DNA of 64,000 nucleotides from Kiritimatiellia bacterium (GCA_045656225.1 JAZOQU010000019.1:13320-77319), one strand, 5' to 3'. Counted from the first letter of the stretch, positions 2,813 through 45,655 are shown. Translations and numbers: made by a program. The notes: a model not told the origin generated them from the sequence alone.

Positions 2813-2816
2813 AACA

Positions 2817-28767: not shown

Positions 28768-30314
28768 GCTCTACCCACCTTCGAAAGTAAACCTTTAATT
28801 TTGGAGCCCACGAAATTTCGCTCTTCCTTATTTAACAGAATCATCCACGATAAAGCGACTAAAACCGTTTCAACTAAAAGTCCGGATACCAAAACTCTAA
28901 CGAAAGAAGTTTTCATAAAAAGTCGTGGCAAAAGTCCTATACCTGCGGTTATTGCGGCGACCATAAAAAGCGGCAAAAAGATGTGAAACAACCAATACCT
29001 CGCCGATAATCCAACTAATTTGCGAGCAAACCAGACTCGCCCCCATGCACACATAGCCATAGTGATAACCATTGAATAACCTACCGCGTACACGTTCCAA
29101 CCGATATGCACAAATATCCAGGCAATCGGCAATGTTAAAAGTAAAGCCCCGCCCAAGAACGCCTGATAAACTGCGATTTTGCCGCGAGCATTAACAGCAA
29201 GCATATGACCTACCGAGGTTTTATCAATAATAACCATCGCCATAACCGACCAGCACAGACCGTCAGTGTAGCGCGGAGGATTCTTAAGCCATATCCTTAA
29301 TATTTCAGGCAATTCAACAGCTATTGGAATCATAAAAATTAAAAGGAGCAATGTTCCGATTTTGCAAGCTTGATAAGCTAAAGCCCGCATTCGATCCATA
29401 TCTCCTGCTCCGTAAGCATTAGCAATAGCAGGCTGAAACGCTCCAATTAAACTCGACGATAATGTGCCAGCATGATTAACAACATTACTTCCGAGAGCCA
29501 TAGCGGAATTAACCTTAGGACCAAAGTACTTATTTACCAGTATAGCAAGCCCCTGCCCGCGCAACATAGCCCCAAGACAGCCGAAAGTTTGCCATCCAGC
29601 ATAGTAAAATAATTCCTTAAACTTATCGGTCGACCATACATAAGAAAGCTTAAAACGGCATTCGGGAAAGACAATAATAGCACGAATGCAGATAATAAGT
29701 TGAGGGACTACCGACATTAACATTCCCCATAGCGCGTATTTTGCCAACCAATCGCCAGGATTGGAAACCATATAATACAGGAAAAGGAAGTTAAGCGTTG
29801 TAGTAGCGAAAGAATATATCGTTAACTCTGCTATATACTGTTTAGCAGTATACATCGCCTGGAATGGCACATTAACCATACCGATAAAGCATGAAATGCA
29901 CACAAAGCGAAAAACCCAAACGCATGATTCTATTCTATCGGGAGGGATGATAAGCCAGTGGCGCACAGCCCATTCGCCAATCGGATAACCAATCATCATC
30001 AAAATTATCGGAATAACAGTATGAATAAACACCGCTATCGAGAACCATTGGCGACAGGACTCAAGGCCCTCGCTACTATTCTTTTGGGCTGCGCCGATCG
30101 AAACGGCATAAAAGCGACCTACGGCAGTAGCTAGGAGCCCATTAAAGAAAGCTATAAACGCAGTTAATCCTCCAACAACACCATACAACCCAAAGTCCAC
30201 CTGCCCCAGCGCCTCCAACACCCACCGCGCCGTAAAGAGCCCCAGCACAAGCGCATAAAGCGACCGCCCATACGTGGCGATGATGTTTAGGAATATGCGA
30301 CGATTAGGGGACAT
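28764..30314 (-). CDS. wzx: Polysaccharide flippase (Wzx/MOP family)
   Basis: Start MSPNRRIFLNIIATYGR; LGQVDFGLYGVVGG; many TM helices. Confidence 0.88.
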   Translation of the reverse strand: MSPNRRIFLNIIATYGRSLYALVLGLFTARWVLEALGQVDFGLYGVVGGLTAFIAFFNGLLATAVGRFYAVSIGAAQKNSSEGLESCRQWFSIAVFIHTVIPIILMMIGYPIGEWAVRHWLIIPPDRIESCVWVFRFVCISCFIGMVNVPFQAMYTAKQYIAELTIYSFATTTLNFLFLYYMVSNPGDWLAKYALWGMLMSVVPQLIICIRAIIVFPECRFKLSYVWSTDKFKELFYYAGWQTFGCLGAMLRGQGLAILVNKYFGPKVNSAMALGSNVVNHAGTLSSSLIGAFQPAIANAYGAGDMDRMRALAYQACKIGTLLLLIFMIPIAVELPEILRIWLKNPPRYTDGLCWSVMAMVIIDKTSVGHMLAVNARGKIAVYQAFLGGALLLTLPIAWIFVHIGWNVYAVGYSMVITMAMCAWGRVWFARKLVGLSARYWLFHIFLPLFMVAAITAGIGLLPRLFMKTSFVRVLVSGLLVETVLVALSWMILLNKEERNFVGSKIKGLLSKVGRA

Positions 30315-30375
30315 GTCAACTGTTGCCAATGTGAAAATGTTACCAATTACCAAATTCAGAGCATTTTAATTCCAC

Positions 30376-30894
30376 TCATTGTTTATCTTCCTCAGGACAT
30401 GCAGTTTTATGACTTTCGCTCATGTGGACACGAACAAATACTGTTCCTCCATTCAAATCCATTGGTTCTTTATTATCATCGCTATTGCACTTATGGCACA
30501 ACGGCACGATCCAAGCGTCCTTCCCAGTATTAGGCTCACCATCTTTCCTAACATGTGCTCCAACAATTTTGGGATTTTGCTCCTCATTTTTGCAATCAGA
30601 ATTTGAACATGCATTAGGAAAGGCTAACCAAGTCTTATCTTGCCAATATCCACCCCATCCATTTAGAACTGGTGACTCCTCCTTTGATGTGTCCTCAACA
30701 TTGCGCACTATCTGTGGATAATCTGAACGAAATATATCGTCACTTTTTTGCAACACATCTCGATGAATCTCGCCTGATCGCATCAGATCTTCTTCATGCG
30801 GTACGGGTTTTAGTGCCTCCAAAATGAGTTCTTTAGGTGTCACAAGTCTTTTCCTTTCCTTACATTGTTCAAAAAATCTCCAAGCGGCTTCCAT
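30376..30894 (-). CDS. Hypothetical protein with Cys/His-rich HNH-like C-terminal domain
   Basis: CSNSDC...GAHV...WIVPLCHKCN. Confidence 0.55.
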   Translation of the reverse strand: MEAAWRFFEQCKERKRLVTPKELILEALKPVPHEEDLMRSGEIHRDVLQKSDDIFRSDYPQIVRNVEDTSKEESPVLNGWGGYWQDKTWLAFPNACSNSDCKNEEQNPKIVGAHVRKDGEPNTGKDAWIVPLCHKCNSDDNKEPMDLNGGTVFVRVHMSESHKTACPEEDKQ

Positions 30895-31014
30895 GTCCTC
30901 AAGGAAACTGATTCAACCTCTCAATCGGTACGCACAATGCCCAGCTCTGCAATGACGAACCATAGTTCGTGATGTTACATGAGATATTGTAGCTAACTAT
31001 ACCAACTGTTTTCA

Positions 31015-31803
31015 TCATAGCTTAAAGTCTTGATACAAGCTATCTAGGAATTTCGCACCACAACGTCCATTTGTTCCACAAAATGCCGTCTCTATCCTAA
31101 CTTTACGCATGATGTTTTGTAACGAAGAATACGAGACATTCATTAACCCCTTAGTGTCTGCCTTATATTTTAAGTTGAGCATTGACTCATTAAGATTTTC
31201 CAGACTCGTATCTTCAGCAAACTTGCCAAACCGCGTACAAGGTCTTCGCGCAATTATCCGAGCAATTGTCAACTCGTGATACAACCATGGAGATAGTGTT
31301 TCAACTCTATTTCTAGATGCAGTGATTGACGAATTTGGCGTATCCAAGAAGATAAAGCATTCCGTCAAATCAATCATTCGCGTAAGCGCATGAGCAAGCA
31401 TGATATAAACATGAGCAGTTGATCTATTACGCCTTTCATAAGCATATATCTTTGAGCCATCAGCATCTATATTCTTCACACAATACGTATCATCTATTTT
31501 TCTAAGTAATTCGCTCGCATACCTCCACACTTCTGAATCAACAAATACTTTCAGGCCCATACGCTCTAATTGACCGGCTAACTTCCTTGTGAGTTCGCAA
31601 TCGTTATGTGAATGAGACAGGAATATGTCTGCATCGTAATTGGGAAACCATGTATCCATTATCCAATTGGCATCCTGCGAATCAAGTACAGAGTCAATGT
31701 CTAGATCGACATTTAATTTCGCTACTGGTTTGTGTCCCTGATTTAACTTTTTAATTTCTTTGATGTTAGCATCATCCAAGATTAGTCTAAATCCCCTATA
31801 CAT
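31015..31803 (-). CDS. TIR-domain protein
   Basis: DIFLSHSHND, VFVDS and SPWLYHEL (candidate catalytic Glu). Confidence 0.82.
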   Translation of the reverse strand: MYRGFRLILDDANIKEIKKLNQGHKPVAKLNVDLDIDSVLDSQDANWIMDTWFPNYDADIFLSHSHNDCELTRKLAGQLERMGLKVFVDSEVWRYASELLRKIDDTYCVKNIDADGSKIYAYERRNRSTAHVYIMLAHALTRMIDLTECFIFLDTPNSSITASRNRVETLSPWLYHELTIARIIARRPCTRFGKFAEDTSLENLNESMLNLKYKADTKGLMNVSYSSLQNIMRKVRIETAFCGTNGRCGAKFLDSLYQDFKL

Positions 31804-31922
31804 TGTAATTACCCCCTATATTTTTTACATATTGCCATCAAATGTCATCGCCAAAATGGAAACCGTAATCACAACATAAACCTACGTACCAATAGCTGTC
31901 AATTTCGACTTGAGCGGTTACC

Positions 31923-32534
31923 CTATCGAAGATTCCTCAGTCTTATTTTTTCAGCAATCCTACTATATCGTTTTTCATAGGCGCAATTGACATATTGATC
32001 AGGATCCGCAATAAACTGCGCATAAGTAGTCAAAACGCAATATCTGTCCCTCTCACCCCAACAGCAACCTGGCTTCGGGGGAATAAAATAATTACAACTA
32101 AATTCCCTGACCACCGTGCTATCATCAACTATCGCAGTGAAGTGAGTCTTTCCACAAACCGAACACTGGTAATTACCAGTAAAAACCCTGCTTTCCATCT
32201 CTGGCAGAACAACTCCAACAATCCCACTGCGCGTGTTGCCTTTCCCGTCGAACAAAGACGCTTGCAGTTCTCGTTTGATGAAAAAATTGTTATCTCTCCC
32301 AAATCTATCGACGCCTTCATCCTCCTTTGAATGCAGCCCTATAAGAAAAAGTGTGACAGTGGTATCGGAAAGATAGTTGTCTCTGATTTCCTGCAAAATA
32401 TAATCAGCATCTTCACTATCAATCCATCTATCCAGAAACTTAACGGGCACATCCTCCTGTCCAAGTTTCTTCAAGATTTCATCACGATAATACTTGTCCT
32501 CTTTCTTAAAAGATATAAAACACTTATGACTCAT
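31923..32534 (-). CDS. thsB: Thoeris ThsB TIR-like protein (DUF1863)
   Basis: MSHKCFISFKKED, IRDNYLSDTTVTLFLIG and FIKRELQASL; ATGA overlap with thsA. Confidence 0.85.
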   Translation of the reverse strand: MSHKCFISFKKEDKYYRDEILKKLGQEDVPVKFLDRWIDSEDADYILQEIRDNYLSDTTVTLFLIGLHSKEDEGVDRFGRDNNFFIKRELQASLFDGKGNTRSGIVGVVLPEMESRVFTGNYQCSVCGKTHFTAIVDDSTVVREFSCNYFIPPKPGCCWGERDRYCVLTTYAQFIADPDQYVNCAYEKRYSRIAEKIRLRNLR

Positions 32535-33367
32535 ATACGCCACTCCCTTTCTAAAGAAACCAGATTCATGTTCTTCAGCGATTTCTTGTAAAGAACAATA
32601 TTCACTTGGGTTGAGACTTTCTCGTGCTCTAAGCATTCTGTCACAATTGATGCAAGCAATACATTGAAAAGAGCCTGCTCAGGAGACTTTATTCGAGCAT
32701 TCCCGCTACCCATCAGGGGAAACGATACCGTATCGCCATTTGCACGTTCTCGTGCTACATCCAAGGCACCGCTAACAACCACGTTTAAATCCTTGAGTTC
32801 CGACTGCGTACGATGCGTCTCAGCATTAGTCCTAGATATTGCAACTAAGACAAACCGCTTGCCAGCATCCGTTTTGACAAAAACCGCCGTTCCTATCGGA
32901 TATCGTTTCTCCTTTGCCATTCCATCTCGTACTGTTGTTTCATACTTTTTACCTGTAAGTCCATCCTCTATCTGCATGTCAAGGGCTCCAACATTCGCAC
33001 CCCAATACTTTTTCACCATCATTCCATGTAGACTTTTCTCTGATATATGGCAATCATCGACTAATGTATCGAAAAAATCATTCACACCTATTACAGCAAC
33101 GCCATTTTCGTTAAAGATATCACCATATGACACATTAACTTCCATCCCGACCGCACCAACACGAATGCGTGCCCGACGTTTTAGATACCCCTCTATCAAA
33201 AATCCGTTTACAATGAATATACCCACACCAACAACAAAAACACAAACGATGTAACACCATGGATTATGAAGCGGCTCCAACTTGCATTCCATTGGAATTG
33301 ATGCGATTGACTGAACAACTGTCAATCCGTAAAATAACGCCAATATAATCCTTAAAACATTCTTCAT
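32531..33367 (-). CDS. thsA: Thoeris type II ThsA (TM plus macro domain)
   Basis: Two N-terminal TM helices; YGDIF, IGVNDFFDT, SLHG, YPIGT and FPLMGSG. Confidence 0.85.
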   Translation of the reverse strand: MKNVLRIILALFYGLTVVQSIASIPMECKLEPLHNPWCYIVCVFVVGVGIFIVNGFLIEGYLKRRARIRVGAVGMEVNVSYGDIFNENGVAVIGVNDFFDTLVDDCHISEKSLHGMMVKKYWGANVGALDMQIEDGLTGKKYETTVRDGMAKEKRYPIGTAVFVKTDAGKRFVLVAISRTNAETHRTQSELKDLNVVVSGALDVARERANGDTVSFPLMGSGNARIKSPEQALFNVLLASIVTECLEHEKVSTQVNIVLYKKSLKNMNLVSLEREWRI

Positions 33368-33417
33368 TGCTTGATCCTCTTATATTCGTTGAATACTTTC
33401 ATCACAAGTCACTTTTA

Positions 33418-33972
33418 TCACGGAAGCCTTTGACATTCCTCGCGGTCACGAATCATGCTTGACGCCTTTTCCTTAGTTCGTCTGCTAAACCGTCTTCCAT
33501 ATCTGTAATAATACTGTAACTTCTGCAATTCATCCATCCCTGTATGCCCAAAGAAGTTTTGAATCATTGTCACATTCTCTTCAATGCTACGAGAATAGGT
33601 TATCCACGAGGAAAGTATCGCAAGAGCTTTGGCAAAACACGACCATGTTTTATCGTTCGACCATATCTTTTGGCTCCAAGTAGGTATCAACTCCCCTCGC
33701 ATCTCTGCTTTGCGAAGAAAATCTGTCAAGTTTCGTCCAAACAAAACCCAATTGTCTTTTCCATAATCTCCATCGCTTTCTTCAATCGCTGAATTGCAGC
33801 CACATGAGATATTTTCATGCCAATATTTAAACGCTAACAAACATATCAATCCCGAAATGCACATTGCAGGATTTGGAAACGCTTCCTCCAACGTTATCTT
33901 AGCAGAAGACAACATACGTGTGAATTCTATCGGATCACTGAGTTTCTTGTCTATGTGATTAATTCTTTTCAT
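33418..33972 (-). CDS. Hypothetical protein
   Basis: 184-aa ORF co-oriented between the leader module and thsA. Confidence 0.55.
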   Translation of the reverse strand: MKRINHIDKKLSDPIEFTRMLSSAKITLEEAFPNPAMCISGLICLLAFKYWHENISCGCNSAIEESDGDYGKDNWVLFGRNLTDFLRKAEMRGELIPTWSQKIWSNDKTWSCFAKALAILSSWITYSRSIEENVTMIQNFFGHTGMDELQKLQYYYRYGRRFSRRTKEKASSMIRDREECQRLP

Positions 33973-34039
33973 AAGAAATCATGATCATTAGGTTTTTCCA
34001 GCCTTCCATGGGGGCACCCCCCCCCATGGACGAATCCCG

Positions 34040-34175
34040 TCAACGCTCTCGCCCCGTGGGGTATGCAGTCGAATACCTCATTTCAAATTTTTCTAATGCT
34101 TTATTGCAGTTTTGGCTCATTATCGACGCCATTCTTTATGTTATATATTGTAACCTTTTAGTTACCCAAAGTCAA
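34040..34175 (-). promoter_or_regulatory. Promoter plus leader ORF plus ops-like motif, copy A
   Basis: TTGACT-17-TACAAT; ORF 34132-34040 MASIMSQNCNKALEKFEMRYSTAYPTGRER; GGGGCGAGAGCGTT. Confidence 0.75.
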
Positions 34176-34444
34176 GTTACAAGCGCATCATTGGCAATTG
34201 CATCATCTACGCCAACTTCATCTGAAGAAGGCCTTAAAATCGGCATAAAGTCCATCTTCAGCGCCTGAGCCAACTTCGCCGCCGTCCGGAACGAAAAGTT
34301 CACATCCTGGCTTAACACCTTTGTGATATACGGCCGCGAAACCTTCATCCTCTTCGCCAGCTCAGTCTGGTTAATCCCCAACTCCTTCATCCGAAGAAGT
34401 ATCGCCCTCAGAAACGCCGAGCCTATTTTGTTGAGTGTGTCCAT
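34172..34444 (-). CDS. XRE-family helix-turn-helix protein
   Basis: LGINQTELAKRMKVSRPYITKVL...NFSFRTAAKLAQAL. Confidence 0.85.
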   Translation of the reverse strand: MDTLNKIGSAFLRAILLRMKELGINQTELAKRMKVSRPYITKVLSQDVNFSFRTAAKLAQALKMDFMPILRPSSDEVGVDDAIANDALVT

Positions 34445-34463
34445 TTTAGTCGTTAGCTTTTTT

Positions 34464-34600
34464 TAGTCGAAGTCCAAAGTCGAAGTCGAACAGTGGCGGT
34501 TTTTAGCCGTGTAGAGGTGGAGATGGGGAGAAGTGATTTTATTTAGGTAAAACTTCACGACTAGGCCCCCGTGACCCTAGACAAGAAACTAGCTTCGACT
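34464..34600. repeat. Micro-repeat stack (AGTCGA-type hexamer unit ending GAACAGTG)
   Basis: agtcgaagtccaaagtcgaagtcgaacagtgg...ttttatttaggt; a related stack lies at 39129-39197. Confidence 0.75.
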
Positions 34601-34601
34601 C

Positions 34602-35216
34602 TCAACTAAGAATCAAATCACGAACACTAGAACGGATCTTGTCCTTTGCTGCTTCCCAGTCGAAATCAATCAACATCTTCGGCATCGGCATCATCTCAGC
34701 ATCAACAAAATACGACAGACTTCTCAAAGCTAGAGCAGGATTCGCCTGTGGATATTTCTCCTGATACCATTCTTTCAGCGGATATTCATCCAGCAATCTC
34801 GCCAAATCAACAAAATCTTTTCTTGTTCCACGATTCGTTATGGCATTGACCTTCATCGCACCTATATCCTTGATTCCCGCCAAACGAACTCCGTCATCTT
34901 CTATTGCAGACTCAAGCCATGCATACATATCATAACAAACACAATCAACTTTTATATCATCGATAAAGAAGAACTGCATTTTCCCATTCGGCGTACCGCT
35001 TTGCTTTTCGACAGTCCCTATTTGGGCGAAAAGCGAAACCAAATCCAATGAATAATCCCATCCGCCAAAAACATCCAAATCAATGCTTATTCTATGCCCG
35101 AGTTGCAACGCAAGTGCTGTTCCGCCTACCAGTCGAGTGTTTTTCAACTCGGGCAGGCGCTGCATTCTCCGCAATACCTCAAGCGTATGGGATTCTATTG
35201 TCTCGAAGTGTAACAT
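34602..35216 (-). CDS. AbiEii/AbiGii-type nucleotidyltransferase toxin
   Basis: LVGGTALALQLGHRISIDLD and AMKVNAITNRGTRKDFVD. Confidence 0.88.
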   Translation of the reverse strand: MLHFETIESHTLEVLRRMQRLPELKNTRLVGGTALALQLGHRISIDLDVFGGWDYSLDLVSLFAQIGTVEKQSGTPNGKMQFFFIDDIKVDCVCYDMYAWLESAIEDDGVRLAGIKDIGAMKVNAITNRGTRKDFVDLARLLDEYPLKEWYQEKYPQANPALALRSLSYFVDAEMMPMPKMLIDFDWEAAKDKIRSSVRDLILS

Positions 35217-35545
35217 TTAAAAGACTCTTCTGGCTGATTAATCAGGCATGAAGCGAAAGATAATGTAACCGGATCAAGAGACCTGATCTCCCGAGCTTCT
35301 TCTGCAACAACTGAAAGAGAATAATAACTTATCAATTGTCGTATATCCTTAACGCCACCGCGTTCCAAAACCCGTTGAACGATAAAGCGTTTGTGAGTAT
35401 TTTCTTCAATTGATTCAATAGAGACATCCCAGAAGAGCCGTTTTGAAAGAGATCGAACCAACCCCTTCTCCAGACAACGCTCTCGCCCCGTGGAGCATGC
35501 AGCAGAATACCTCATTTCCGTGTTTTGTGGCAATCCTTCCACCAT
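35195..35545 (-). CDS. DUF6922-like putative antitoxin, in frame with leader copy B
   Basis: LSKRLFWDV, FIVQRVLERG and LDPVTLSF; N-terminus MVEGLPQNTEMRYSAACSTGRER is the leader peptide. Confidence 0.7.
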   Translation of the reverse strand: MVEGLPQNTEMRYSAACSTGRERCLEKGLVRSLSKRLFWDVSIESIEENTHKRFIVQRVLERGGVKDIRQLISYYSLSVVAEEAREIRSLDPVTLSFASCLINQPEESFKCYTSRQ

Positions 35546-35570
35546 AAATTTACCGTATATTATACTATTT
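35476..35570 (-). promoter_or_regulatory. Leader/ops-like module, copy B (divergent)
   Basis: TATAAT near 35559-35564; GAAATGAGGTATTCTGCTGCATGCTCCACGGGGCGAGAGCGTT. Confidence 0.65.
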
Positions 35571-35619
35571 TTTACAGAACACAACACTATCAACTGATTG
35601 TCACGATAGGACTATGGAT

Positions 35620-36297
35620 TTACTTCTTAGTCGGAAACCAAGATCTAAACCGTGCAATCAAGGTTTTAGGCCTACGAAACAACTTCTTTGCCATTTTATC
35701 TTTAGAAATCTCATCCTTAAGTTGTGTATAAATGGTTTGAAGATAATTAGTTTCATTTTCAATCATAGGCAATATCCGCTCTACATCCCCCCTTAATCCA
35801 TTAGCAGATTGCCTTAACAGTTCTTGTGAGTCCGGCAGATTCGCCAGGCACGAAAAATCCTGAAGACGAGACAAAAAACACGCAAGTTCCTTCACTATCG
35901 GCCTTGCATCATAATAGGGAAATACTGTATATAAGGCAACGCCAGTAACATTTGAATCTTCTTTTTCTACCTCTCCCAATTTTTGAAAAGATGCTACTAA
36001 TAAAACCACCTTACTCTTCACAACTTCTATCGGTGCCTCCGCATCCTTTAACGACTCAAACGCCGCAAGGATAGCATAATAAACATTCAACTTAAGCGAC
36101 AAAAAAGTAATCGCTTTCTCGTACGCTTCAAAACGCCGCACACACAAAGTCCTTCGCAAATCCATGCCACTGGTTATCCTCGCTATCACAGCCGATGAAA
36201 TAAAACCAGCAACAGCCGCCACCAACGCATCATGCTCTCCGCACCAATCAAGAACCGCGAAAAGAACTTCCTTAAAATCACAACAACAACTTATCAT
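35620..36297 (-). CDS. Hypothetical protein, N-terminal TM plus helical body
   Basis: LVAAVAGFISSAVIA hydrophobic segment; resembles 39237-39827. Confidence 0.6.
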   Translation of the reverse strand: MISCCCDFKEVLFAVLDWCGEHDALVAAVAGFISSAVIARITSGMDLRRTLCVRRFEAYEKAITFLSLKLNVYYAILAAFESLKDAEAPIEVVKSKVVLLVASFQKLGEVEKEDSNVTGVALYTVFPYYDARPIVKELACFLSRLQDFSCLANLPDSQELLRQSANGLRGDVERILPMIENETNYLQTIYTQLKDEISKDKMAKKLFRRPKTLIARFRSWFPTKK

Positions 36298-36329
36298 TTA
36301 CCCCTCTTAGTTTTTAAACTCCACCAGCC

Positions 36330-37480: not shown

Positions 37481-37625
37481 CTAAAAAACGCCAAGCTCTC
37501 GCCCCGTGGGGTATGCAGCCGAATACCTCATTTCAAATTTTTCTAATGCTTTATTGCCGTTTTGGCTCATTATCGACGCCATTCTTTATGTTATATATTG
37601 TAACCTTTTAGTTACCCCAAGTCAA
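37481..37625 (-). promoter_or_regulatory. Promoter plus leader ORF plus ops-like motif, copy C (near-identical to A)
   Basis: TTGACT-17-TACAAT; ORF 37582-37481 MASIMSQNGNKALEKFEMRYSAAYPTGRELGVF; ~135 bp nearly identical to 34045-34179. Confidence 0.78.
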
Positions 37626-37817
37626 GTTAGAAGTTTTTCAGCAATATTTGCAGGGTGCGATTCTAAATTGTTGAAGGTTTTGCGGCTTTGGGCGTGTGGT
37701 TCGTCCGTCGAACGCGTCGACTCCGCGCGTTCCGCGCTTTCGACGCACCCCGCATAGCGCCCGCTTCGCAGCTCGGCTTCGCCTCGGGGGATACCGGAAT
37801 TCGCGACACTGGACAAA

Positions 37818-38180
37818 ATGCGCAGCAACATCCTACTCGCCGTCAGTCTTTCCCTCATCTCCCTGAGCGCCGTTTCTGCGGATCATTACGTCGATTCGTC
37901 CAGAGGCAGCGACTCCGCCGCCGGCACATCTCCCGCCGAAGCGTGGAAGACTCTCGCGCGAACACGCAAAAGCGGAATAAAACCCAGCGACACCGTGCGC
38001 CTCGCATGCGGCGGCATATGGCGAGAACAGCTTGTTCCCGTCTCAGGCCTAAAGGGCAAGCCCGTCACTTATGCATCGTACGATCCGCCCGGCACCAGGG
38101 GTCTGCCGCCGCCGACCATCCAGTCGTCCCTCGACAGATCGAAACCGTCTGACTGGAAGAGCGTCGTCGAAGGCCTGTGA
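37818..38180 (+). pseudogene. Truncated secreted beta-helix (DUF1565-like) protein N-terminus
   Basis: Signal peptide, HYVDSSRGSDSAAGTSPAEAWKTL, DTVRLACGGIWREQL and GKPVTYASY; stops at 120 aa. Confidence 0.6.
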
Positions 38181-38341
38181 GCGACAGCGGAATTCTCGTT
38201 CGAATACTGGCATGCGGGCGAAACGCGCGACATACTTTTCGAGGGCAACATATGTATCCGCTGGCTGACAGGCATGCACGAGGCATTTTTCGACATCGAC
38301 GGATTCAAGGCGCTCGGCTTTGACTGAGAACGCGCCATCTT

Positions 38342-38833
38342 TCAGCGTTTGACAGGTTCGATATCATTGGGCGATACCGACACTTCGACCGCAGCGCCAA
38401 GTATTTCGACATTCAGGCAAAGCGTCGCATCGCGACCGCGTCTGACGACACAGCCTTCAACTCCATAGAGCGGCCCGGAAATCACCTTTACAAAATCACC
38501 GACGTTGGACATGACAACGGGTTTGAGCTGCGGCGCATTGCGGGAGGCCCGAGAAATCTGGCGCAACTGGTGGATCATCGTTCTCGGCTGAGGCACGAGG
38601 ATCGTTCTGACGAGAAGATTCGTCTTCAGCATCTTCAGTCGCTCTTCTGGATAGAGTTTTGTGAAAACATACCCCGGGAAGCACGGAAGAATGCGGCTGA
38701 CCTTGCGCCGCTGAACTCTGGTTATCTTCTGGTATGTCGGCAGATATCCGAAATACCGGTAATTCTCAATAAAGCTCATCACCTTCTTTTCGGTGCGAGG
38801 TTTCACATGAAGAACATACCAGTCACGCTTCAT
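38342..38833 (-). CDS. NusG-paralog transcription antiterminator (UpxY/RfaH/LoaP-like)
   Basis: WYVLHVKPRTEKKV, PCFPGYVF and KOW motif VGDFVKVISGPLYGVEG. Confidence 0.9.
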   Translation of the reverse strand: MKRDWYVLHVKPRTEKKVMSFIENYRYFGYLPTYQKITRVQRRKVSRILPCFPGYVFTKLYPEERLKMLKTNLLVRTILVPQPRTMIHQLRQISRASRNAPQLKPVVMSNVGDFVKVISGPLYGVEGCVVRRGRDATLCLNVEILGAAVEVSVSPNDIEPVKR

Positions 38834-38964
38834 TTTCAGACAAACGCAAAAAAACCGAACATGAAAAAGCGCACCTTGTCAGCAGCACGGCCAACAAGGC
38901 GACAGCAAGCATCAGCAGAAAAATCGAGCAATCTTCTCATACCCAATAGTATAGCACAAAAATG

Positions 38965-39064
38965 CCCACCCCTCCACACTACCCACTAAGCTCCACATTT
39001 ACGCATCCAAACTCCGAGCGCCTGTCGCTATGATGTTGAGAAATTTTCACCGATTAGGTGTTAT
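38965..39064 (-). pseudogene. Degenerate wzx 5' fragment
   Basis: Minus strand reads ITPNR*KFLNIIATGARSL, vs intact wzx MSPNRRIFLNIIATYGRSL. Confidence 0.7.
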
Positions 39065-39236
39065 AGTTAATGTGTTGGAGTTACGAGTTCGAGTTCGAGT
39101 TACTTGTTTCGGGTTGAGGGTTTCGAGCTAGTCGAAGTTAAAAGTCGAACAGTGGTGGTTTTATTTAGGTGAAGGTCAAAGATGAAGGTGAACAGTGAAA
39201 GTATAGATGGTAATTTAATTATTGAATTATTGAAGT

Positions 39237-39827
39237 TTATTTTCCTGTAAACACACCTAGATCTGGCCTATCCAACTCTTTATAAAAAATATCTAATATT
39301 CTTAACAAATGATTTGACTCACGCTTAATAGCCTCCTTAGATGCCTGCAAAATCTCATAAAGTTCATTAATTTCAGATGGCATCAATTTACTATTAAGAC
39401 CTCTCAATATTACACTGGCATTTATTCTCTGGCATGTCGTGACAAAATTTAACAAAGTATTTGCGTCCGAAATTTCACTAGGCCCTCTTGCTGGTATCGC
39501 ACTATGTATATACGGCATCACAGCCAGTACTTCCGTGTCCGTGTCAGAAGCCGTCGCATATTTTTGAATCATATTAAATGTCAGGACTACATTAAGCCGC
39601 ACTTTTTCCTCAGACGGATCATCTGTCACAATTTTAACCAATGTATCACATAAATTATTCCTATAGGTCAATGCTTTAATAGCCCCGATTATTGCATCGT
39701 GTGCTTTAATATACATAAGATGTCGTATATTAGCTTCTGATGCAAATCTCTGCGCTTTTATTGATGCGCATCGATTTATTACAGCACCTACTATTACCCC
39801 AACCAATCCAATAATAGCTTCACTCAT
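39237..39827 (-). CDS. Hypothetical protein, N-terminal TM plus helical body
   Basis: IIGLVGVIVGAVI hydrophobic segment. Confidence 0.6.
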   Translation of the reverse strand: MSEAIIGLVGVIVGAVINRCASIKAQRFASEANIRHLMYIKAHDAIIGAIKALTYRNNLCDTLVKIVTDDPSEEKVRLNVVLTFNMIQKYATASDTDTEVLAVMPYIHSAIPARGPSEISDANTLLNFVTTCQRINASVILRGLNSKLMPSEINELYEILQASKEAIKRESNHLLRILDIFYKELDRPDLGVFTGK

Positions 39828-39928
39828 AAAAATCTTCTTGTTAATTTATTTTTCTGACACATCATTAAACTCTAACTCGAACCTTTCCGCTATCAGCGGT
39901 TCACTACTCTGCGAACTCACAAAAAAAA

Positions 39929-40138
39929 CTATCGTTCTTTTGACTTCAGTTCCGCTATAACATTCTCTAGCACATACCCATCACTCATCAACTGAAGACC
40001 ATACTTTGCATCTGACAATTGCTTGTATGTTTCTGTTGAATAGAAGATATCCAACGCCTTCTCTTCATCAACTTCAAGCGCTGAAGCAAGGGCCATAATG
40101 ATTCTCGCCTGCTTTCTCCATAAAACATTGTCACGCAT
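39929..40138 (-). CDS. DUF3791-like small protein
   Basis: MRDNVLWRKQARII...ALDIFYSTETYKQL...GLQLMSDGYV. Confidence 0.7.
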   Translation of the reverse strand: MRDNVLWRKQARIIMALASALEVDEEKALDIFYSTETYKQLSDAKYGLQLMSDGYVLENVIAELKSKER

Positions 40139-40146
40139 GATACACC

Positions 40147-40641
40147 TTATAAAATTTCAGCTCCAATAAACTTAAGACATGTATCAATCACAACTTGAGA
40201 ACGAATGCATATCTGATGATTTACCTTTTTATAAATTAATTGGCCCAACGCCTGCTCTGCTGTTATTATGCCATTTTCATAATCTTCGACGGTATCAATT
40301 ACATTATCATTAGCAACGCCACCTTCTATCACATCGTATTGAAGCTGCAATTCTCCTCCACGCCTACAATCAATCACATAATTTAGCCATTCCATATCAT
40401 ACGCATCAAACACCTTATAACGCGCACCTAACATATTCTTGGCCATCGCTTCATTAAAATCATAAGTGTTCAACACTGGCTTACCATATCGAGTACGACT
40501 TGCAATAACCCTAGCCCAAGATTTAGCTTGATCTGAAAGACTTGAGAGATAGAACCCTCTACCAAAATCCACCCTGGCGCGCCCAGCTTCCACCTTTGGA
40601 TTCGCTACACTAACATCAGACCCGTGAAACAACTGAATCAT
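40147..40641 (-). CDS. DUF3990 family protein
   Basis: LFHGS, DFGRGFY, EWLNYVIDCR, YDVIEGGVAND and HQICI. Confidence 0.85.
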   Translation of the reverse strand: MIQLFHGSDVSVANPKVEAGRARVDFGRGFYLSSLSDQAKSWARVIASRTRYGKPVLNTYDFNEAMAKNMLGARYKVFDAYDMEWLNYVIDCRRGGELQLQYDVIEGGVANDNVIDTVEDYENGIITAEQALGQLIYKKVNHQICIRSQVVIDTCLKFIGAEIL

Positions 40642-40880
40642 ACACCGGCCTCCCAATTTTTCAAAGTTGTTATGGTATCTTCTGCAACCCAATCGAGACT
40701 TTGGGTATGCAAGTCATCATACATTGCGATTAAACGATTGTGAATCAAGTCTTGAGCTTTGAGCCGATCATGCATAACTTGACCCGAAATACCAAGCTTT
40801 CGAGCGCCACTCTCAATCGCCATCACAGCAAAGTGTATGCGCTTATGTACATCAGATTTATTGAACGCATTCATACCCAT
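40638..40880 (-). CDS. DUF3791-like small protein
   Basis: IHFAVMAIESGARKLG...YDDLHTQSLDWV; ATGA overlap with DUF3990. Confidence 0.75.
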   Translation of the reverse strand: MGMNAFNKSDVHKRIHFAVMAIESGARKLGISGQVMHDRLKAQDLIHNRLIAMYDDLHTQSLDWVAEDTITTLKNWEAGV

Positions 40881-41004
40881 AACTCTCCCTTCATCCAATC
40901 TTGTAAATCCCGTTAATCCTGTCAAACCCACTCACCTTAAATCTCCAATTCCACTGTTCACCTTCACCTTTCACCTTCACCTCTAAAAAACTCGAACTAA
41001 AAAA

Positions 41005-41137
41005 GCCACGCTCCGCACTCAAGAGGCACTCACTCGAATACCTCATCATATTTTCTAATGCGTTGTTTTTATTTAGGCTCATTATCCACGCCATTCTTTA
41101 TGTTGAGTATTTTACCTTTTTAATCCCCAAAAGTCAA
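41005..41137 (-). promoter_or_regulatory. Promoter plus leader ORF plus ops-like motif, copy D
   Basis: TTGACT-17-TAAAAT; leader MAWIMSLNKNNALENMMRYSSECLLSAER; GTGCGGAGCGTGG. Confidence 0.72.
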
Positions 41138-41405
41138 CTTGTAACCGCCTTTTCTTTAATTTATATTTAATGATTTACGATAATTTTAACTAAATTTATG
41201 CTATAATTTTACATAACGCTTAACCGCCAATTCATAAGGAGTCGCAATGTCCGATCAAGCCCCCGCCCTAAAAATAATTTTCCAAAAAATCTCTCGAAAA
41301 TTACTTAAACAAATCCTATCCATAAACGAAAAACCTCTCGATTTAGATTGGACGCTCCCCTCCCCCAACTTTGAAGAAGACCTTTTCAACGCCCTCACCC
41401 ACAAT

Positions 41406-41533
41406 TTTGGCACAAACAGGTCTGACCTTCCTGTGCCACTTTGGCACTAATTCCCCATATCCACCCCTTTTCCACCCAAAACCCCAACATATAAAAGTGG
41501 CACAAAAAGGTCAGACCTATTTGTGCCACTTTG
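41406..41533. repeat. REPIN-like doublet of TGGCAC...GGTC(A/T)GACC...GTGCCA palindromes
   Basis: Two ~36-40-bp imperfect palindromes about 50 bp apart; the ~127 bp recurs at 46388-46514. Confidence 0.88.
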
Positions 41534-41537
41534 TCAA

Positions 41538-42560
41538 TCATCCGCGCACCTTCTTCAAAAGCCGATACGCTGTTCGCAACGACACCCCCAACGCATCCTG
41601 AATAGACTTCGCCCTGGCATCAGGATCTCGTTCAAGAATTTCCCGAACGGCCACCTCCAACATATCGTTTCGTGCTGCGCGCCGCCCTTTCATCGCTGTC
41701 GATTCATGCATCTCGACCGCCGCCGAGCGAACCTTCTCAAGATGCGCCGAGGCTTGGGCGATCATCGCCTCGGTCGTTAATGAGTCTACCGGCATTTCAT
41801 AACCGGCCGCGCGCTTGCGGGCGATTTCTTCAGCACGGCGCAACTTCTCCTTTTCAAGCAGCCGCTCAAGTAATGCTTCATGTCGCTCAGTTATCTCATC
41901 CAAAGAATCGTCATCACCATAAATAAAACGCATCCCCTTTTCAGACAACCTATTGCCGCGACGAAACGCAGTGTAGCTGCTCCAAAAATATCCATCGAAT
42001 TTATCAGCTACAGCTGCGCGTATTGGATTTAGATGAATGTAACCAAGACACTCAGCCATCTTTGAAATTGATTGTTCAACAATTCGATCATGATATGCCG
42101 ATTCCCAAAGTGTACCCTTATGACTGTATCGCCGATTGTATTCCATCGAGAACCATTGCTTAAGAATCTTCATAAACTCTCCAACATCGAACATTCGAGC
42201 GTAAAGTTTATCCAACTCCTTTTTAACAAGCTTCTCGCCTGGCTCACCTTTAAGCCGCCACTCCTCGAAACTCTTCGCTAACTGAGCTGCGGCAGTATCA
42301 CCTTTTAAAACACCATAACGACGTAAAATCTCATCCTCTTCCAAAACGCGGCGATTCGGTAAATAAACAAGAATGTGAAAATGATTGGTCATAATGCACC
42401 AACCGATAAGTTCAAGACAACAAAATTCAGCAGATCGCCGCATCATATCAATAAATTCATCGCGCTCCTCATCCTTCAAAAAATAAACGCGATGCGCAAT
42501 GCGACTAACCAAATGATGAACAGTATCAGTTTCTTTAGAACGATTATTAGAATTCGCCAT
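41538..42560 (-). mobile_element. REP-associated tyrosine (HUH/Y1) transposase, RAYT-like, with C-terminal HTH
   Basis: HHLVSR, WCIMTNHFHIL (HUH), GTLWESAY, YIHLNPIRA and YFWSSY; likely start MANSNN after AAGGAGG. Confidence 0.88.
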
Positions 42561-42577
42561 ACCACCCTCCTTCACAT

Positions 42578-42706
42578 TTTGGCACAAATAGGTCTGACCT
42601 TCCCGTGCCACTTTGGCAGTATATTATCATAATCGCGCCAAAACTGCAATAGACACCCACTTATGATTTTGGCACAAACAGGTCAGACCTATTTGTGCCA
42701 CTTTGG
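42578..42706. repeat. REP-like palindrome pair upstream of the RAYT
   Basis: tggcacaaataggtctgaccttcccgtgccactttgg and tggcacaaacaggtcagacctatttgtgccactttgg. Confidence 0.88.
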
Positions 42707-43029
42707 TAAAGATTTTACTACAAACCTATAGTATTCCTTTCTAATTAGTTTTTGAAAGATTATTTAGTTTATAATTTATGTTATACTCCTATTAAAAAAC
42801 ATCAATTCAAGGAGATTAAAATGACAGAACAATCACCCACGATAAGAATTACTTTAGAATCTACATCAAAAAATTTTTGTATCCATTAATGGTCAAAATT
42901 TAGATACTATCCCTACTGATTCAATAAAAATAGCTCAATGTACATCTTGCAATATCATTTTTCAAATCAATACCAACTCGCCCAAGAAAAAACACAACCC
43001 TAAGTTGGCAATCATCCCCGCCTCATTGT

Positions 43030-43202
43030 ATAAGCCAACATCACAATCACCGTCATTCCACCAACCACTCCATATAATCAAAGCTCACTCTTTCCCGCCG
43101 CCGCCAAACCCACCGGCTAACGAACAACCCGCACACAAGCGCATACAGCGACCGCCCGTATGTCGCTATGATGTTCAGGAAGATTCGACGATTAGGAGTC
43201 AT
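43030..43202 (-). pseudogene. Degenerate wzx 5' fragment
   Basis: Minus strand reads MTPNRRIFLNIIATYGRSLYALVCGLFVSRWV, then frameshifted. Confidence 0.85.
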
Positions 43203-43509
43203 TTTAGGGGTTAGGAGTCAGGAGTTAGCTGGTTTCGTCTGAGGATTATTATTTAACAACAAGATGTCAGTTCATAGCCATCTTTCAGAAGTATGTTGCA
43301 AAGGTAACACCTCAAGAATCCAACCCTCCCGTAACTAACGCCTTCTTAAATAATTTTAGCTCCATTTATTACAACTCTCGATTTTTAAGACATAAGTTTA
43401 GATTAACTTTCTAAGCAATAGTCACGCAATCCCCAACTTTGCAACATTGCCAAAACTTTGCGCACAACATGTTTTAAATCATTATTTTAGCGCACAAGAG
43501 TACTTTATG

Positions 43510-45024
43510 TCATTTACTATGGATAACACTATCTAAACTTTCTCGAAATGCTTTGTGCGCCTCTTTAAGAATCGCCGATGCCGAAACTCCTTTAGACCGC
43601 CTAACAAAAGCGTTGAAGTAGAATTTGGGCGCTATTGCATTGGCATTAAATAAATCATAAGTTACACATTCCTTGCACTCTTCATCAAGAAGCACATCAA
43701 TATGTGTTGCTTTCCGCTTTGTGATCTTTATCTCGCCCGCTTTGATAAATATATATTCATTTCCATGATCCTTGCAAAAAGCAATCATCCTCCCATTAAA
43801 CTCTTCCCATACCATCTCTCTGTCTATGCGATTATCATACTCTGCAGCAAAACAACTCAAAAAACGCTTTTCAAAATCGATATGAGACTTCCATAACGGC
43901 ACATACTCGTTATCCCTATAGTAATAAGCACGAAAATATATATCATTAGGAATATACTTCTTCATCAAATGCAAGAAATCGCCATCAGTCGGCAGATAAA
44001 TCACCTCATCGCCAAGCTTTTTCACGTTCTTATTGGACAATAGGCGTTTAGGAGAAAACATGTGCGCTCCCAAACTCAATTCATTACATCTTCCTAATTT
44101 GTTTTTTGCCAAAGCCTTGACAAGAGACTCTATGGCACGCTTCAAAATTACATTTGCAAAATCAATCTTGTGATGCACAATTACCCACTCGTAGATAAAA
44201 TCCCGAGCACTAACCGCATTAACCAAAGCCGACAACGCCTTTTTCCGCATTACAACATGCCCGTTTTTTAAATCAAGCCACAACCCATTGATCAATCTCT
44301 CCGTATCAACGGATGCGTTACATATTCCTGTCGCCCATGTATCACGCTGTAAATAGTCCAGTCTATCCGCATCAACAATAAATCCATTTATCAAAGACAC
44401 AAAACAATTCCATACACGATTTTTCAATGGCTTTGTATTGGCATTCTTCAATCCGATAATCATTCGCGCAAACTGCTCACAATCTATATCTTTCTCATCT
44501 GCGGATTTCAAACTCGAAAACCTAGGAAGCATTTCCCTGCAAGCAACAAACGCGCTAGCCAATTCATGTACGGCATACCGCACCGTCCCCACTCCGATTG
44601 AATTGAAGAAGTCAGCACGAAAATCATCGGATTTAACTTCATCAAGCAACAACTCTCGTATTTCATTGTCGCCACAATAATCAACAACACATTTCTCCCC
44701 AGTATGCGAAAAAGGAGAGTGGGCGCAATCATGCAACAATGCCGCAGCCAGAAAAGTATTCCTCAGTTCATCTATAAATCTACGCTCTCTTACAACTTCA
44801 AGCACTTGTGGTTCAAGCACAGTAAACATTCGTTTGGCAATTGCAAAAACGCCTAAACTATGGGCAAAACGCGTATGACTCGCCGCAGGAAACAATACAT
44901 CCATCGTCGATTGCCCGATAAAGCGCAAGCGCTGGAAAATCGGTGTATCAACAAATGCGCGACAAAATAGAGACGACACCTCTATATTGCCATGAACAGA
45001 ATCTCTAAATGACTTTTCTTTCAT
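43510..45024 (-). CDS. HD-domain phosphohydrolase (dNTP triphosphohydrolase-like)
   Basis: FRDSVHG, FQRLRFIGQ, HTRFAHSLG, LLHDCAHSPFSH and DADRLDYLQRD; TGATG coupling to the upstream ORF. Confidence 0.88.
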   Translation of the reverse strand: MKEKSFRDSVHGNIEVSSLFCRAFVDTPIFQRLRFIGQSTMDVLFPAASHTRFAHSLGVFAIAKRMFTVLEPQVLEVVRERRFIDELRNTFLAAALLHDCAHSPFSHTGEKCVVDYCGDNEIRELLLDEVKSDDFRADFFNSIGVGTVRYAVHELASAFVACREMLPRFSSLKSADEKDIDCEQFARMIIGLKNANTKPLKNRVWNCFVSLINGFIVDADRLDYLQRDTWATGICNASVDTERLINGLWLDLKNGHVVMRKKALSALVNAVSARDFIYEWVIVHHKIDFANVILKRAIESLVKALAKNKLGRCNELSLGAHMFSPKRLLSNKNVKKLGDEVIYLPTDGDFLHLMKKYIPNDIYFRAYYYRDNEYVPLWKSHIDFEKRFLSCFAAEYDNRIDREMVWEEFNGRMIAFCKDHGNEYIFIKAGEIKITKRKATHIDVLLDEECKECVTYDLFNANAIAPKFYFNAFVRRSKGVSASAILKEAHKAFRESLDSVIHSK

Positions 45025-45362
45025 CAACGCATCGCAGTCAATACAGAAACGATCTTGTTGTATTCCTGCGGCGTATAAAGTGCGCCATAACAATCACGAA
45101 GATGTGTATCACTGAAGAAATCTGGGAAACGTTCGCCGTTACCTTTCTCCACACGAAATGTTCCACGTTCGCCAACAATCCGAATCGCACCTTCATAACG
45201 ACGAGCCGCCTTGATTAACGAACTCAATGAGACATCTACGGCGATGCCATCCTTGTACCCTGCAAGCTTGTTCCGCATCTTTTGCAAATCATTTTCGGAA
45301 ACACTACCCCTATCTTTAAGCGCATAGCCCAAAGCCATCTTTGTGTTTACTTTTTTGCACAT
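45024..45362 (-). CDS. Small hypothetical protein coupled to the HD gene
   Basis: 112-aa ORF whose TGA overlaps the HD start ATG. Confidence 0.6.
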   Translation of the reverse strand: MCKKVNTKMALGYALKDRGSVSENDLQKMRNKLAGYKDGIAVDVSLSSLIKAARRYEGAIRIVGERGTFRVEKGNGERFPDFFSDTHLRDCYGALYTPQEYNKIVSVLTAMR

Positions 45363-45559
45363 AGTCTTGAATTTTATCTTTTTAGAAAATAAGCTTGAGT
45401 ATTATATCAAATTTACCGTTCGCATTTCAATGAGGCCATGACTTTCACGCTTATCACGATTTTTCGGAAATTATCCCGACTATATGAAAACCCCTGCATT
45501 ATTCAGGCACCTGATCATATCTCCATAATCAGCATTCATCGGACCCTTCGCCACGTTCC

Positions 45560-45655
45560 GACCACGCTCCGCGCCCCATGGGGTATGCAGCCGAATATTC
45601 CATAGCCAAATTTTTCTGTGTTTTCTCTCTCATAACGCTTACATTATATCATTTT
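45560..45655 (-). promoter_or_regulatory. Leader/ops-like module, copy E
   Basis: TGaTATAAT near 45643-45651; leader MREKTQKNLAMEYSAAYPMGRGAW; TATTCGGCTGCATACCCCATGGGGCGCGGAGCGTGG. Confidence 0.68.

Follow-up and report, generated by a model that had tools for sequence, protein, structure and literature searches.

This report concerns a 64,000-nucleotide (nt) stretch of DNA from a Kiritimatiellia bacterium (GCA_045656225.1, JAZOQU010000019.1:13320-77319; hereafter the window, in which all positions are counted), which comes from a genome of 2.6 Mb in 62 contigs (G000) and which holds a stack of repeated operon heads upstream of a surface-polysaccharide operon. Our main finding is that the interval between the head of this operon, a promoter-leader element, and the first biosynthetic gene, here a wzx-type flippase gene, is a cassette hotspot. 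The cassettes found there are low in GC content and mostly carry defence, toxin-antitoxin or phage-derived genes; they are co-oriented with the operon and differ between relatives, and homology breaks off at two places, the leader core at one end and the opening ~110-170 nt of the first gene at the other. An earlier note, made from the DNA by itself, had described the stack and proposed that the slot between leader and wzx is exchangeable; its observation has been confirmed, and its interpretation is partly supported.

Cassette exchange behind the leaders

The proposal of an exchangeable slot is borne out above all by the Thoeris cassette that follows leader E1 (Table 1). An independent 9.6-kb metagenome contig, L058, matches window positions 34080-30196 at 97.5% identity over its positions 2394-6276, that is, from inside the leader core to 118 nt into wzx. 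Upstream of the Thoeris block L058 has a different leader front with the other variant of the GCG..AGC element described below, and downstream its wzx piece stops after 42 codons and is followed by three unrelated open reading frames (ORFs), a second wzx stub and another leader, so that the Thoeris cassette is terminal in the window and internal in L058. An exact 27-nt junction pattern gave no match in metagenome contigs, and it was the follow-up protein search that led to this one locus. Likewise, cassette 4 is 98.5% identical to a tract of G156 (L054 1696-3514) that stands behind another leader, the homology boundary lying ~40 nt past the core; the E2 block and G170 L051 3353-3779 share 96% identity, starting at the leader core; and the HTH gene together with E1 is 93% identical in G177, where the homology stops at the 3' edge of the core, as do those between E1 and E3 and between L024 and L025. 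Other relatives carry other cargo, and G044 carries none at all, its leader being followed directly by acyltransferase and glycosyltransferase genes.

Public sequencing runs offer further joints, seen throughout as assembled Logan contigs from four runs (X1-X3 are DNA libraries and X15 is an RNA library). Two of them pass from leader to leader (41014>45620 in X1, side 26; 35482>45575 in X15, side 30) and others across blocks (42989>45623 in X3, side 30; 38983>41495 in X2, side 34; and 40143>40640), with sides of 26-51; because these are metagenome contigs, we take this evidence as moderate, and the joints 30970>45620 (side 20), 37467>40904 (23) and 37531>39074 (23) were discarded for sides that are too short. 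Run contigs also break at 38255/38256 (two runs, sides 82 and 69) and at 38983 (three runs), which look like recurrent module boundaries. In any single run, at most 0.67 of the words sampled from 33400-41200 are present; contig cover is absent over 30996-33491 (Thoeris) in all four runs and consists of spanning joints alone over 43476-45347 (HD), the lack of cover being uninformative in both cases. We rejected the X15 contigs on 34567-36555, 37813-38983 and 41512-41945 as a sign of transcription, since an RNA library can hold DNA.

All five heads in the window are copies of one promoter-leader element on the minus strand, co-oriented and designated E1-E5. Repeat finding and alignment recovered them where the earlier note had placed them, and the search of the genome that it advised, made with blastn over the 62 contigs, returned just these five. 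E1 and E3 are 97% identical over 139 nt and E4 is 78% identical over ~120 nt, and the part that E2 and E5 have in common is the ~50-nt core alone. Each leader is followed by different cargo, and all of the cargo named previously was confirmed by Pfam and PADLOC. Between 30376 and 45362, 18 of the 19 annotated genes lie on the same strand as the polysaccharide operon. GC content is 0.37-0.47 across 30-47 kb, except in the kilobase with the NusG paralog gene (0.53), and is 0.52-0.59 in the flank from 47 kb.

The other boundary is set by wzx, the first gene of the polysaccharide operon. Relatives' wzx genes are 32-61% identical, and DNA conservation in the first ~110-170 nt is far above that in the remainder of the gene. 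A tblastn search with the intact wzx found the two decayed 5' ends that had been reported beside it (stubs 2 and 3). Over 10 loci, the window included, a script counted 21 stubs of first-gene 5' ends (wzx, aepY-like and ThDP enzyme), each on the same strand as the leaders; one of these is a second alignment piece of window stub 3, and stub 2 was missed, which leaves about 20 in nine relatives' loci. Relatives' wzx 5' pieces occur in L014, L040, L038, L046, L048, L054, L057 and L058. In G115, G102, G112 and G045 the first biosynthetic gene is aepY-like and at least 11 stubs hold its first 33-57 codons, five of them ending at codon 38, and a 5' piece of the ThDP-enzyme gene recurs too. Several cassettes of G115 are divided by stubs alone, without a leader; as the same holds for many relatives' cassettes, the repeated unit is the whole operon head, meaning the leader and/or the 5' end of the first gene. 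A repeat of ~35 nt (..ATTGGCAACA.T.TCACATTGGCAACATT) was also seen at 30315-30358, just upstream of wzx, and again on four other contigs of G000, at C45:769-812, C50:700-732, C47:83-115 and C27:83-115, two of these being near contig ends.

How widespread is the element? A 24-nt core pattern, allowing up to two mismatches, is present in 40 of 221 family genomes and in four of 27 genera, against one match in total for the same pattern reversed. At least two core copies were found in 19 genomes, on one contig in 17 of them, and opposite-strand copies were found on none of the 18 multi-copy contigs of those 17 genomes, the window's included. G115 has six copies in 40 kb, and arrays reach six or seven leaders. 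Polysaccharide or sugar-nucleotide genes follow the arrays in 10 longer loci (blastp to the window's biosynthetic genes), and in both G044 and G115 polysaccharide genes stand immediately behind a leader. What precedes the array varies, being PepSY in the window, ComEC in G177 (L057 7769-9220) and an rve-like ORF, which scores under the Pfam cut-off, in G045 (L013 10308-11519). The earlier note had advised tabulating what lies between leader and wzx across relatives, and the outcome is that the cargo differs and that stacks with stubs recur in many independent assemblies.

Among 50 relatives' proteins in or flanking the arrays, 30 have a Pfam match at E 0.001 and 20 have none. Defence-type content in relatives is represented by AAA_15/21 paired with DUF3226 or DUF4276, by ThsB with SLOG-patatin, by S8 with AAA, by SLFN_AlbA_2 and by zeta toxin; HATPase_c_4 accompanies DUF4062 or SLFN_AlbA_2, and there are further matches to D12 methylase, RhuM, ORF6N and Exo_endo_phos. 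By its predicted content, then, with Thoeris and AbiEii in the window and a content that varies between relatives, the locus is a defence hotspot. The previous view of the cargo as immunity genes fits the predicted Thoeris and AbiEii and was too narrow in that 23S_rRNA_IVP, lipocalin and acyltransferase genes also stand behind leaders in relatives. Sixteen public contigs share the element, nine of them titled Kiritimatiellae, Kiritimatiellia or Kiritimatiellaeota, three ‘uncultured bacterium’, and one each Verrucomicrobia, Lentisphaerae, Bacteroidaceae metagenome-assembled genome (MAG) and Lachnospiraceae MAG; all are from gut or rumen by title. Element contigs L033 (66.8 kb) and L029 are binned in Lachnospiraceae and Bacteroidaceae MAGs, respectively, which may reflect mis-binning or transfer; L033 continues into two-component-system genes.

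Leader anatomy and its candidate reader

The conserved core of the leader is ~45 nt long and has the consensus RTGAGGTAT-TCGGCTGC-ATACCCCAC, followed by GGGGCG-AG-AGCGT or GGGCGCGGAGCGT, a layout of hairpin and then GCG-N2/3-AGC-GT. It is nearly base-for-base constant across four genera, while its flanks diverge. Across 57 aligned leaders, 48 carry a GCG..AGC element (GCG-N2-AGC in 23, GCG-N3-AGC in 23 and GCG-N1-AGC in two), as opposed to 4.5% in shuffles, and GT comes next in 36 of 46; one of the nine rows without the element is a mis-registered E4, which really carries GCG-G-AGC. We retain the hairpin solely because covariation supports it, which folding energy does not. Indeed, 83.2% of cells are paired and four of nine pairs are altered on both sides, with 15 such cells, a score that none of 500 shuffles reached, and slid controls pair 22-53%; pair 26-43, for example, is GC in 48 leaders, AU in six and GU in two.

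A short ORF, with its ATG 9-23 nt past the -10, keeps an open frame through the core. Among 58 distinct leaders drawn from all loci, frame 0 is the one in which an ATG-started ORF crosses the core in 45, while 11 use frame 2 and one uses frame 1; translation across the core looks constant and the peptide (..RYSAAYPTGRE..) does not. Further upstream, at -78 to -93, a TAAC-N6-GTTA palindrome is present in 17 of 57 leaders versus 1.3% in shuffles, and among the loci inspected the palindrome-bearing leaders mostly adjoin the HTH gene or the NusG paralog. A promoter scan listed no site using the TATAAT of E2 at 35564-35559. Rfam gave no leader match at E <=1 over 27000-48000, and at E <=10 it matched E3 alone, with matches at chance level. 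In E4 the core is degenerate and retains a different 9-bp hairpin with GCG-G-AGCGT. The E4 promoter and leader front (41023-41197) are 85% identical to L014 of G032, a genome of another family, and the tract behind E4 (40949-41006) is 98% identical to the same locus, which hints at transfer between families.

The site had been called ops-like, a description that fits the GCG..AGC stems of both ops and opsX as given in PMC11685472. According to that paper, Escherichia coli ops is 5'-GCGGTAGC, with GCG..AGC stems preceded by a pause hairpin, and class-1 opsX of Bacteroides is a multipartite element of ~40 bp composed of a nascent-RNA pause hairpin and a 5'-YGCGNAGCR non-template hairpin. It is through this combination of pause hairpin and ops-type non-template-strand hairpin that E. 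coli recruits RfaH and Bacteroides recruits class-1 UpxY, and, by sequence pattern, the layout of our leaders resembles it.

A candidate reader for such an element lies within the stack. The earlier note did not recognise an UpxY-like NusG paralog and an XRE-type HTH gene as constant partners of the leaders; the paralog is absent from it, as are the REP-associated Y1 transposase and the plus-strand gene fragment (Table 1). With NCBIfam models the paralog scores 76.1 bits for UpxY (cut-off 100), 43.4 for LoaP (125), 41.8 for RfaH (144.5) and 32 for NusG; AlphaFold2 predicts an NGN domain and a beta KOW domain (pLDDT 87, strands at 104-160), with NusG and RfaH as the top Foldseek matches. It has at least 872 homologs, one being an NCBI-named UpxY family [Kiritimatiellae]. 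The paralog ends 350 nt upstream of a leader in G043, adjoins a leader in G234 (L056) and is found at the array in G177. Homologs of the HTH gene occur in 17 of the 28 tabulated arrays, always on the leaders' strand and mostly just before or just after a leader. We considered that each loop variant of GCG..AGC might be paired with its own paralog and saw no such pairing, the G177 paralog being 98% identical to ours and its leaders carrying the other variant.

The likeness to RfaH and ops is as follows: there is a specialised NusG paralog (NGN + KOW) at the locus and a conserved short element in a polysaccharide 5' leader, the targets are horizontally acquired low-GC genes, and GCG-NN-AGC is followed by GT as in the E. 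coli ops of PMC11685472. Unlike ops, however, the element here lies within a short ORF, behind a hairpin and in up to seven copies per locus, and the KOW domain is predicted to be a beta barrel whereas RfaH has an autoinhibited alpha-helical KOW; the paralog scores 42 bits with the RfaH model. UpxY is the best-scoring family, both systems are found in capsule loci of gut bacteria, and the putative pause hairpin and the GCG..AGC pattern have a layout that resembles class-1 opsX as described in that paper. In Bacteroides, however, the leader is followed first by upxY and upxZ, whereas our paralog is upstream of leaders and behind a terminator-like hairpin. Moreover, no UpxZ family match was found among the 20 window ORFs that we scanned with Pfam profiles (spanning 28764-47023), an invertible promoter was not seen, each genome has one locus and not eight, and defence cargo behind a leader is not described for the Bacteroides system in the available portion of PMC11685472. 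Although the system works like RfaH/ops or UpxY/opsX at the level of layout, we do not count it as a member of either because it falls short of the curated score and departs from the UpxY/UpxZ gene order and from the RfaH KOW prediction.

Competing explanations for the stack

We think it probable that an antitermination-type operon head has been turned into an integrase-free hotspot, at which cassettes are exchanged and stacked by recombination. The structural part of this explanation is solid, and what follows on regulation and recombination we infer. The repeated element would be the head of the surface-polysaccharide operon of gut and rumen Kiritimatiellae, with a sigma-70-type promoter and, in a third of copies, a TAAC-N6-GTTA operator-like palindrome; the UpxY-like NusG paralog would be the likely reader of the leader element, and the HTH protein would probably control the palindrome-bearing promoters. 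The core and the 5' end of the first gene would act as homology arms that can be carried along. Cargo would be swapped by a double crossover, one in each arm, recombination between two repeats would loop out a circle with one repeat and delete the cassette, and the single-crossover (Campbell-type) entry of such a circle at a leader or gene 5' end would add a cassette and leave behind a duplicated leader or a truncated stub, the outcome being behaviour like that of an integron with no integrase involved. Once modified at any of the leaders, RNA polymerase would read through the cassettes into the polysaccharide genes, with co-expression of immunity cargo and capsule. Paralog-aided read-through from E3, E2 and E1 into wzx is to be expected because the genes are co-stranded and no terminator-like site of more than seven pairs was found between E3 and wzx. 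Transcripts from E4 and E5 may end before the paralog gene, because a terminator-like hairpin lies there, unless they are antiterminated.

It is possible, though we are doubtful, that the locus goes further and is an integrase-free analogue of an integron, in which the NusG-paralog recruitment site and the first ~40-60 codons of the leading capsule gene would be the arms, cassettes would be captured, stacked, shuffled and lost, antitermination would ensure co-expression, and a capsule type would travel with its own anti-phage set. If true, this would represent another way, independent of a recombinase and based on a regulatory element, of arriving at integron-like cassette arrays. Anti-phage immunity is linked here in physical terms, and may be linked in transcription, to the surface polysaccharide through which phages have to pass. 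The locus would also furnish a candidate ops-type site and its partner paralog in a little-studied phylum, which bears on target recognition by NusG paralogs, and its arrays are a catalogue of candidate defence genes, given the 20 relatives' proteins without a Pfam match.

Several observations weigh against the explanation that we prefer. The paralog scores under the UpxY cut-off (76 versus 100), is not the first gene of the operon, is preceded by the terminator-like hairpin and, in G044, lies 77 kb from the leader; the paralogs of the window and G177, 98% identical, nevertheless occur with both GCG..AGC loop variants. Folding energy gives the hairpin no support (z 0.55 for E1, 1.10 for E2, 1.38 for E3 and -0.11 for E5), E4 alone folding better than shuffles (z -2.47). 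Cargo 5 has a strong promoter-like site of its own (45430-45401). Stub lengths range from 20 to ~136 amino acids (aa), so that at least some junctions are illegitimate or reflect later deletions, and the HTH-E1-Thoeris join is bridged by no independent contig.

Some of these points would suit an ordinary defence island that happens to lie beside a polysaccharide locus, with leaders that are duplicated promoters of independent operons and have no link to the paralog and no read-through into wzx. Such an island would account for a promoter-like site at each leader and the extra one of cargo 5, for the terminator-like hairpin (38901-38872), for unremarkable hairpin thermodynamics and for a paralog 77 kb away in G044. 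We nevertheless consider it unlikely; against it stand a core that is near-invariant across four genera between diverging flanks, the lack of opposite-strand copies on all 18 contigs, polysaccharide genes after the arrays in 10 longer loci, leaders that directly head such genes in G044 and G115, and a GCG..AGC-GT element in 48 of 57 leaders.

We give little credence to a site-specific cassette system, analogous to an integron, in which an unrecognised recombinase or a Y1 transposase acts on the core hairpin as single-stranded DNA. The core is indeed a conserved imperfect palindrome, one homology boundary lies at the core edge in all five pairs compared, and a Y1 transposase gene is present within the window's stack. 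That transposase, however, has different REP hairpins and no homolog in the relatives' loci compared, no Pfam integrase or resolvase was found among the 20 window ORFs, which agrees with the earlier remark that no integrase is visible, and the genes upstream of the arrays vary (PepSY, ComEC, rve-like). Stub ends, moreover, do not fall at a single position, and the boundary of cassette 4 is ~40 nt past the core.

It is very improbable that the short ORF, serving as a translated attenuator or arrest peptide, is the chief means by which the core works, in place of a site for the NusG paralog. In favour of such a peptide, an in-frame upstream ATG is present in 45 of 58 leaders, as against one and 11 in the other frames, and 20 of those 45 ORFs end no more than 30 nt past the core. 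Yet the core is read in another frame in 11 of the 58 leaders, third codon positions are no less fixed than the other two, and the changes R>K and P>S co-occur as pairing predicts (GAGG/CCCC to GAAG/CTCC; pair 26-43 is GC in 48 and AU in six). Translation through the hairpin may matter and the peptide sequence probably does not, which is compatible with the antitermination-type head that we favour.

Scarcely any weight falls to the idea that part of the five-head stack is chimeric, co-existing strains having been joined in assembly at the near-identical leaders: the 139 nt at 97% identity between E1 and E3 are enough to mislead an assembler, joints in the four runs show other arrangements at leaders and the HTH-E1-Thoeris join is the unbridged one, but a chimera, which may apply to that join, cannot explain the multi-leader arrays on 18 contigs of 17 genomes or L058, in which E1 core, Thoeris and wzx 5' end are contiguous, and overlapping pieces of 34150-41600 are present in all four runs.

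Known mobile systems and the contents of the stack

Sedentary chromosomal integrons have cassettes that carry defence genes, and the likeness to our locus is evident in the co-oriented, exchangeable, small and mostly promoter-poor cassettes below a fixed head, in their variability between strains and in their defence and toxin-antitoxin cargo. The differences are that no IntI is found among the scanned ORFs and that there is no attC, the cassette ends being the leader core, first-gene stubs or C-rich/G-rich word tracts; that the bounds are homologous tracts of 45-170 nt; that many cassettes bring a promoter; and that the array ends in a biosynthetic operon of housekeeping type. We therefore rejected membership of the integrons, no integrase family being present in the window ORFs scanned, and regard the locus as integron-like in outcome alone. 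In enterobacteria, the ops leaders of polysaccharide, conjugation and toxin operons go by the name of JUMPstart and have a role as a recombination end. Minimal mobile elements of Neisseria likewise have variable content at a fixed place that is exchanged by homologous recombination in conserved flanks. Defence hotspots such as those of P2/P4 and the core hotspots of Pseudomonas are similar in their variable defence content, fixed place and homologous exchange in conserved flanks; here, by contrast, one flank is a regulatory leader and the other the opening ~40-60 codons of a gene, both of which are carried along and duplicated to give a tandem stack with stubs. A limited search of the literature found no account in which a NusG-paralog leader is followed by defence cassettes or in which operon heads are stacked.

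Table 1. Leaders, cargo and other features of the stack (window positions)
Feature	Position	Strand	Details
Leader E1	34040-34175	-	TTGACT-17-TACAAT promoter; TAAC-N6-GTTA inverted repeat
E1 ORF	34132-34040	-	30 codons
E1 hairpin	34081-34056	-	
E1 GGGGCGAGAGCGT	34055-34043	-	
Leader E2	35477-35564	-	TATAAT 35564-35559, without TG or clear -35; ORF ATG 35545
E2 hairpin	35515-35490	-	
E2 GGGGCGAGAGCGT	35489-35477	-	
Leader E3	37490-37625	-	copy closest to NusG paralog; TTGACT-17-TA(C/A)AAT-type promoter
Leader E4	41008-41137	-	TTGACT-17-TAAAAT promoter; ORF ATG 41094
Leader E5	45564-45672	-	extended -10 (TGATATAAT); ORF ATG 45633
E5 hairpin	45603-45578	-	
E5 GGGGCGCGGAGCGT	45577-45564	-	
Intact wzx-type flippase	28764-30353	-	529 aa; conserved ATG 30314; Pfam MatE 6.1e-8
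wzx 5' stub 2	39002-39073	-	aa 11-34, 62% identity, one stop (tblastn)
wzx 5' stub 3	43042-43217	-	aa 9-67, 79% then 50% identity, one stop (tblastn)
Cargo 1 (Thoeris)	30376-33972	-	Pfam, PADLOC
184-aa ORF	33418-33972	-	cargo 1
ThsA macro	32531-33367	-	cargo 1
ThsB	31923-32636	-	cargo 1
ThsB-like TIR	31015-31803	-	cargo 1
172-aa Cys-rich ORF	30376-30894	-	cargo 1
HTH_3 (XRE-type) gene	34172-34444	-	90 aa; Pfam 1.1e-9
Cargo 2	34602-35593	-	
DUF6922 ORF	35195-35593	-	cargo 2; 9.2e-18
AbiEii toxin	34602-35216	-	cargo 2; 3.4e-12
Cargo 3	35620-37306	-	
P63C-domain protein	36371-37306	-	cargo 3; 1.6e-16
225-aa transmembrane protein	35620-36297	-	cargo 3
Secreted-protein gene fragment	37818-38180	+	ORF list; between NusG paralog and E3
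NusG paralog, UpxY-like	38342-38833	-	163 aa; Pfam NusG 3e-11
Terminator-like hairpin	38872-38901	-	12 pairs and T run, just upstream of NusG paralog
Cassette 4	39151-40969	-	
DUF3791	40638-40931	-	cassette 4; 5.1e-10
DUF3990	40147-40692	-	cassette 4; 7.7e-45
69-aa ORF	39929-40138	-	cassette 4
196-aa transmembrane protein	39237-39827	-	cassette 4
REP-associated tyrosine transposase	41538-42611	-	Pfam Y1_Tnp; NCBIfam REP_Tyr_transpos 57 bits, cut-off 80
Cargo 5	43510-45362	-	
112-aa ORF	45024-45362	-	cargo 5
HD-domain protein	43510-45093	-	cargo 5; Pfam HD 1.8e-6

On its domain matches cargo 1 qualifies as a Thoeris system, with a macro-domain ThsA and one or more ThsB TIR proteins (ThsA_Macro 4.3e-40 in Pfam; ThsA 2.8e-50 and ThsB 1.7e-62 and 1.9e-10 in PADLOC). 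The ThsB ORF as listed overlaps ThsA by 106 nt, and its true start is probably an internal Met just past the ThsA stop, since the PADLOC match begins at residue 35. The Cys-rich ORF and the ThsB-like TIR gene travel together in G043 (L038 8768-9178 and 9455-10234; 35% and 37% identity), and a homolog of the former precedes an AAA_15/DUF3226 pair in G115 (L046 18325-18750); the Cys-rich ORF has no family match. In cargo 2, the frame of the DUF6922 ORF continues from the leader ORF of E2, and in cargo 3 the transmembrane protein is 54% identical to an ORF in locus L013 of G045. The HD protein of cargo 5 has a weak dGTPase likeness (PADLOC 9.5e-8).

Cassette 4 is bounded by inverted 51-nt tracts that are 82% identical (40941-40991 and 39158-39208). 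C-rich, G-poor tracts built from the words TTCACC, TTCGAC, CTCGAA and AACTCC on the minus strand (39065-39240, 34445-34530, 43212-43250) precede the wzx stubs and the start of the HTH gene, and a G-rich reverse complement (40941-40991) lies behind E4, the inverted repeats around cassette 4 being made of these two forms. The motif CACTGTTC(A/G)AC occurs four times, and in L003 and L029 similar tracts stand before leaders. They may be Rho loading sites, translation leaders or recombination scars.

The Y1 transposase gene is flanked by pairs of REP-like hairpins at 41375-41533 and 42577-42705, and a third pair lies at 46357-46514, upstream of E5. They read GGCACAAATAGGTCTGACC..GTGCC, the segments 42752-42855 and 46286-46389 are 88-93% identical, and the REP core has 13 matches genome-wide. 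Having hairpins of its own that differ from the core, and no homolog in any relative's locus compared, this transposase was rejected as the recombinase of the arrays, and as relatives' loci do without one we do not count it as part of the system. On the plus strand, 37818-38330 holds an N-terminal piece of the gene for a signal-peptide protein, which converges on the NusG paralog gene. Finally, upstream of E5 the minus strand of 45925-46110 resembles, by eye from its translation, the C-terminal remnant of an ATPase, and full-length ATPases of the GPRGTGKTTW type adjoin leaders in L052 and L019.

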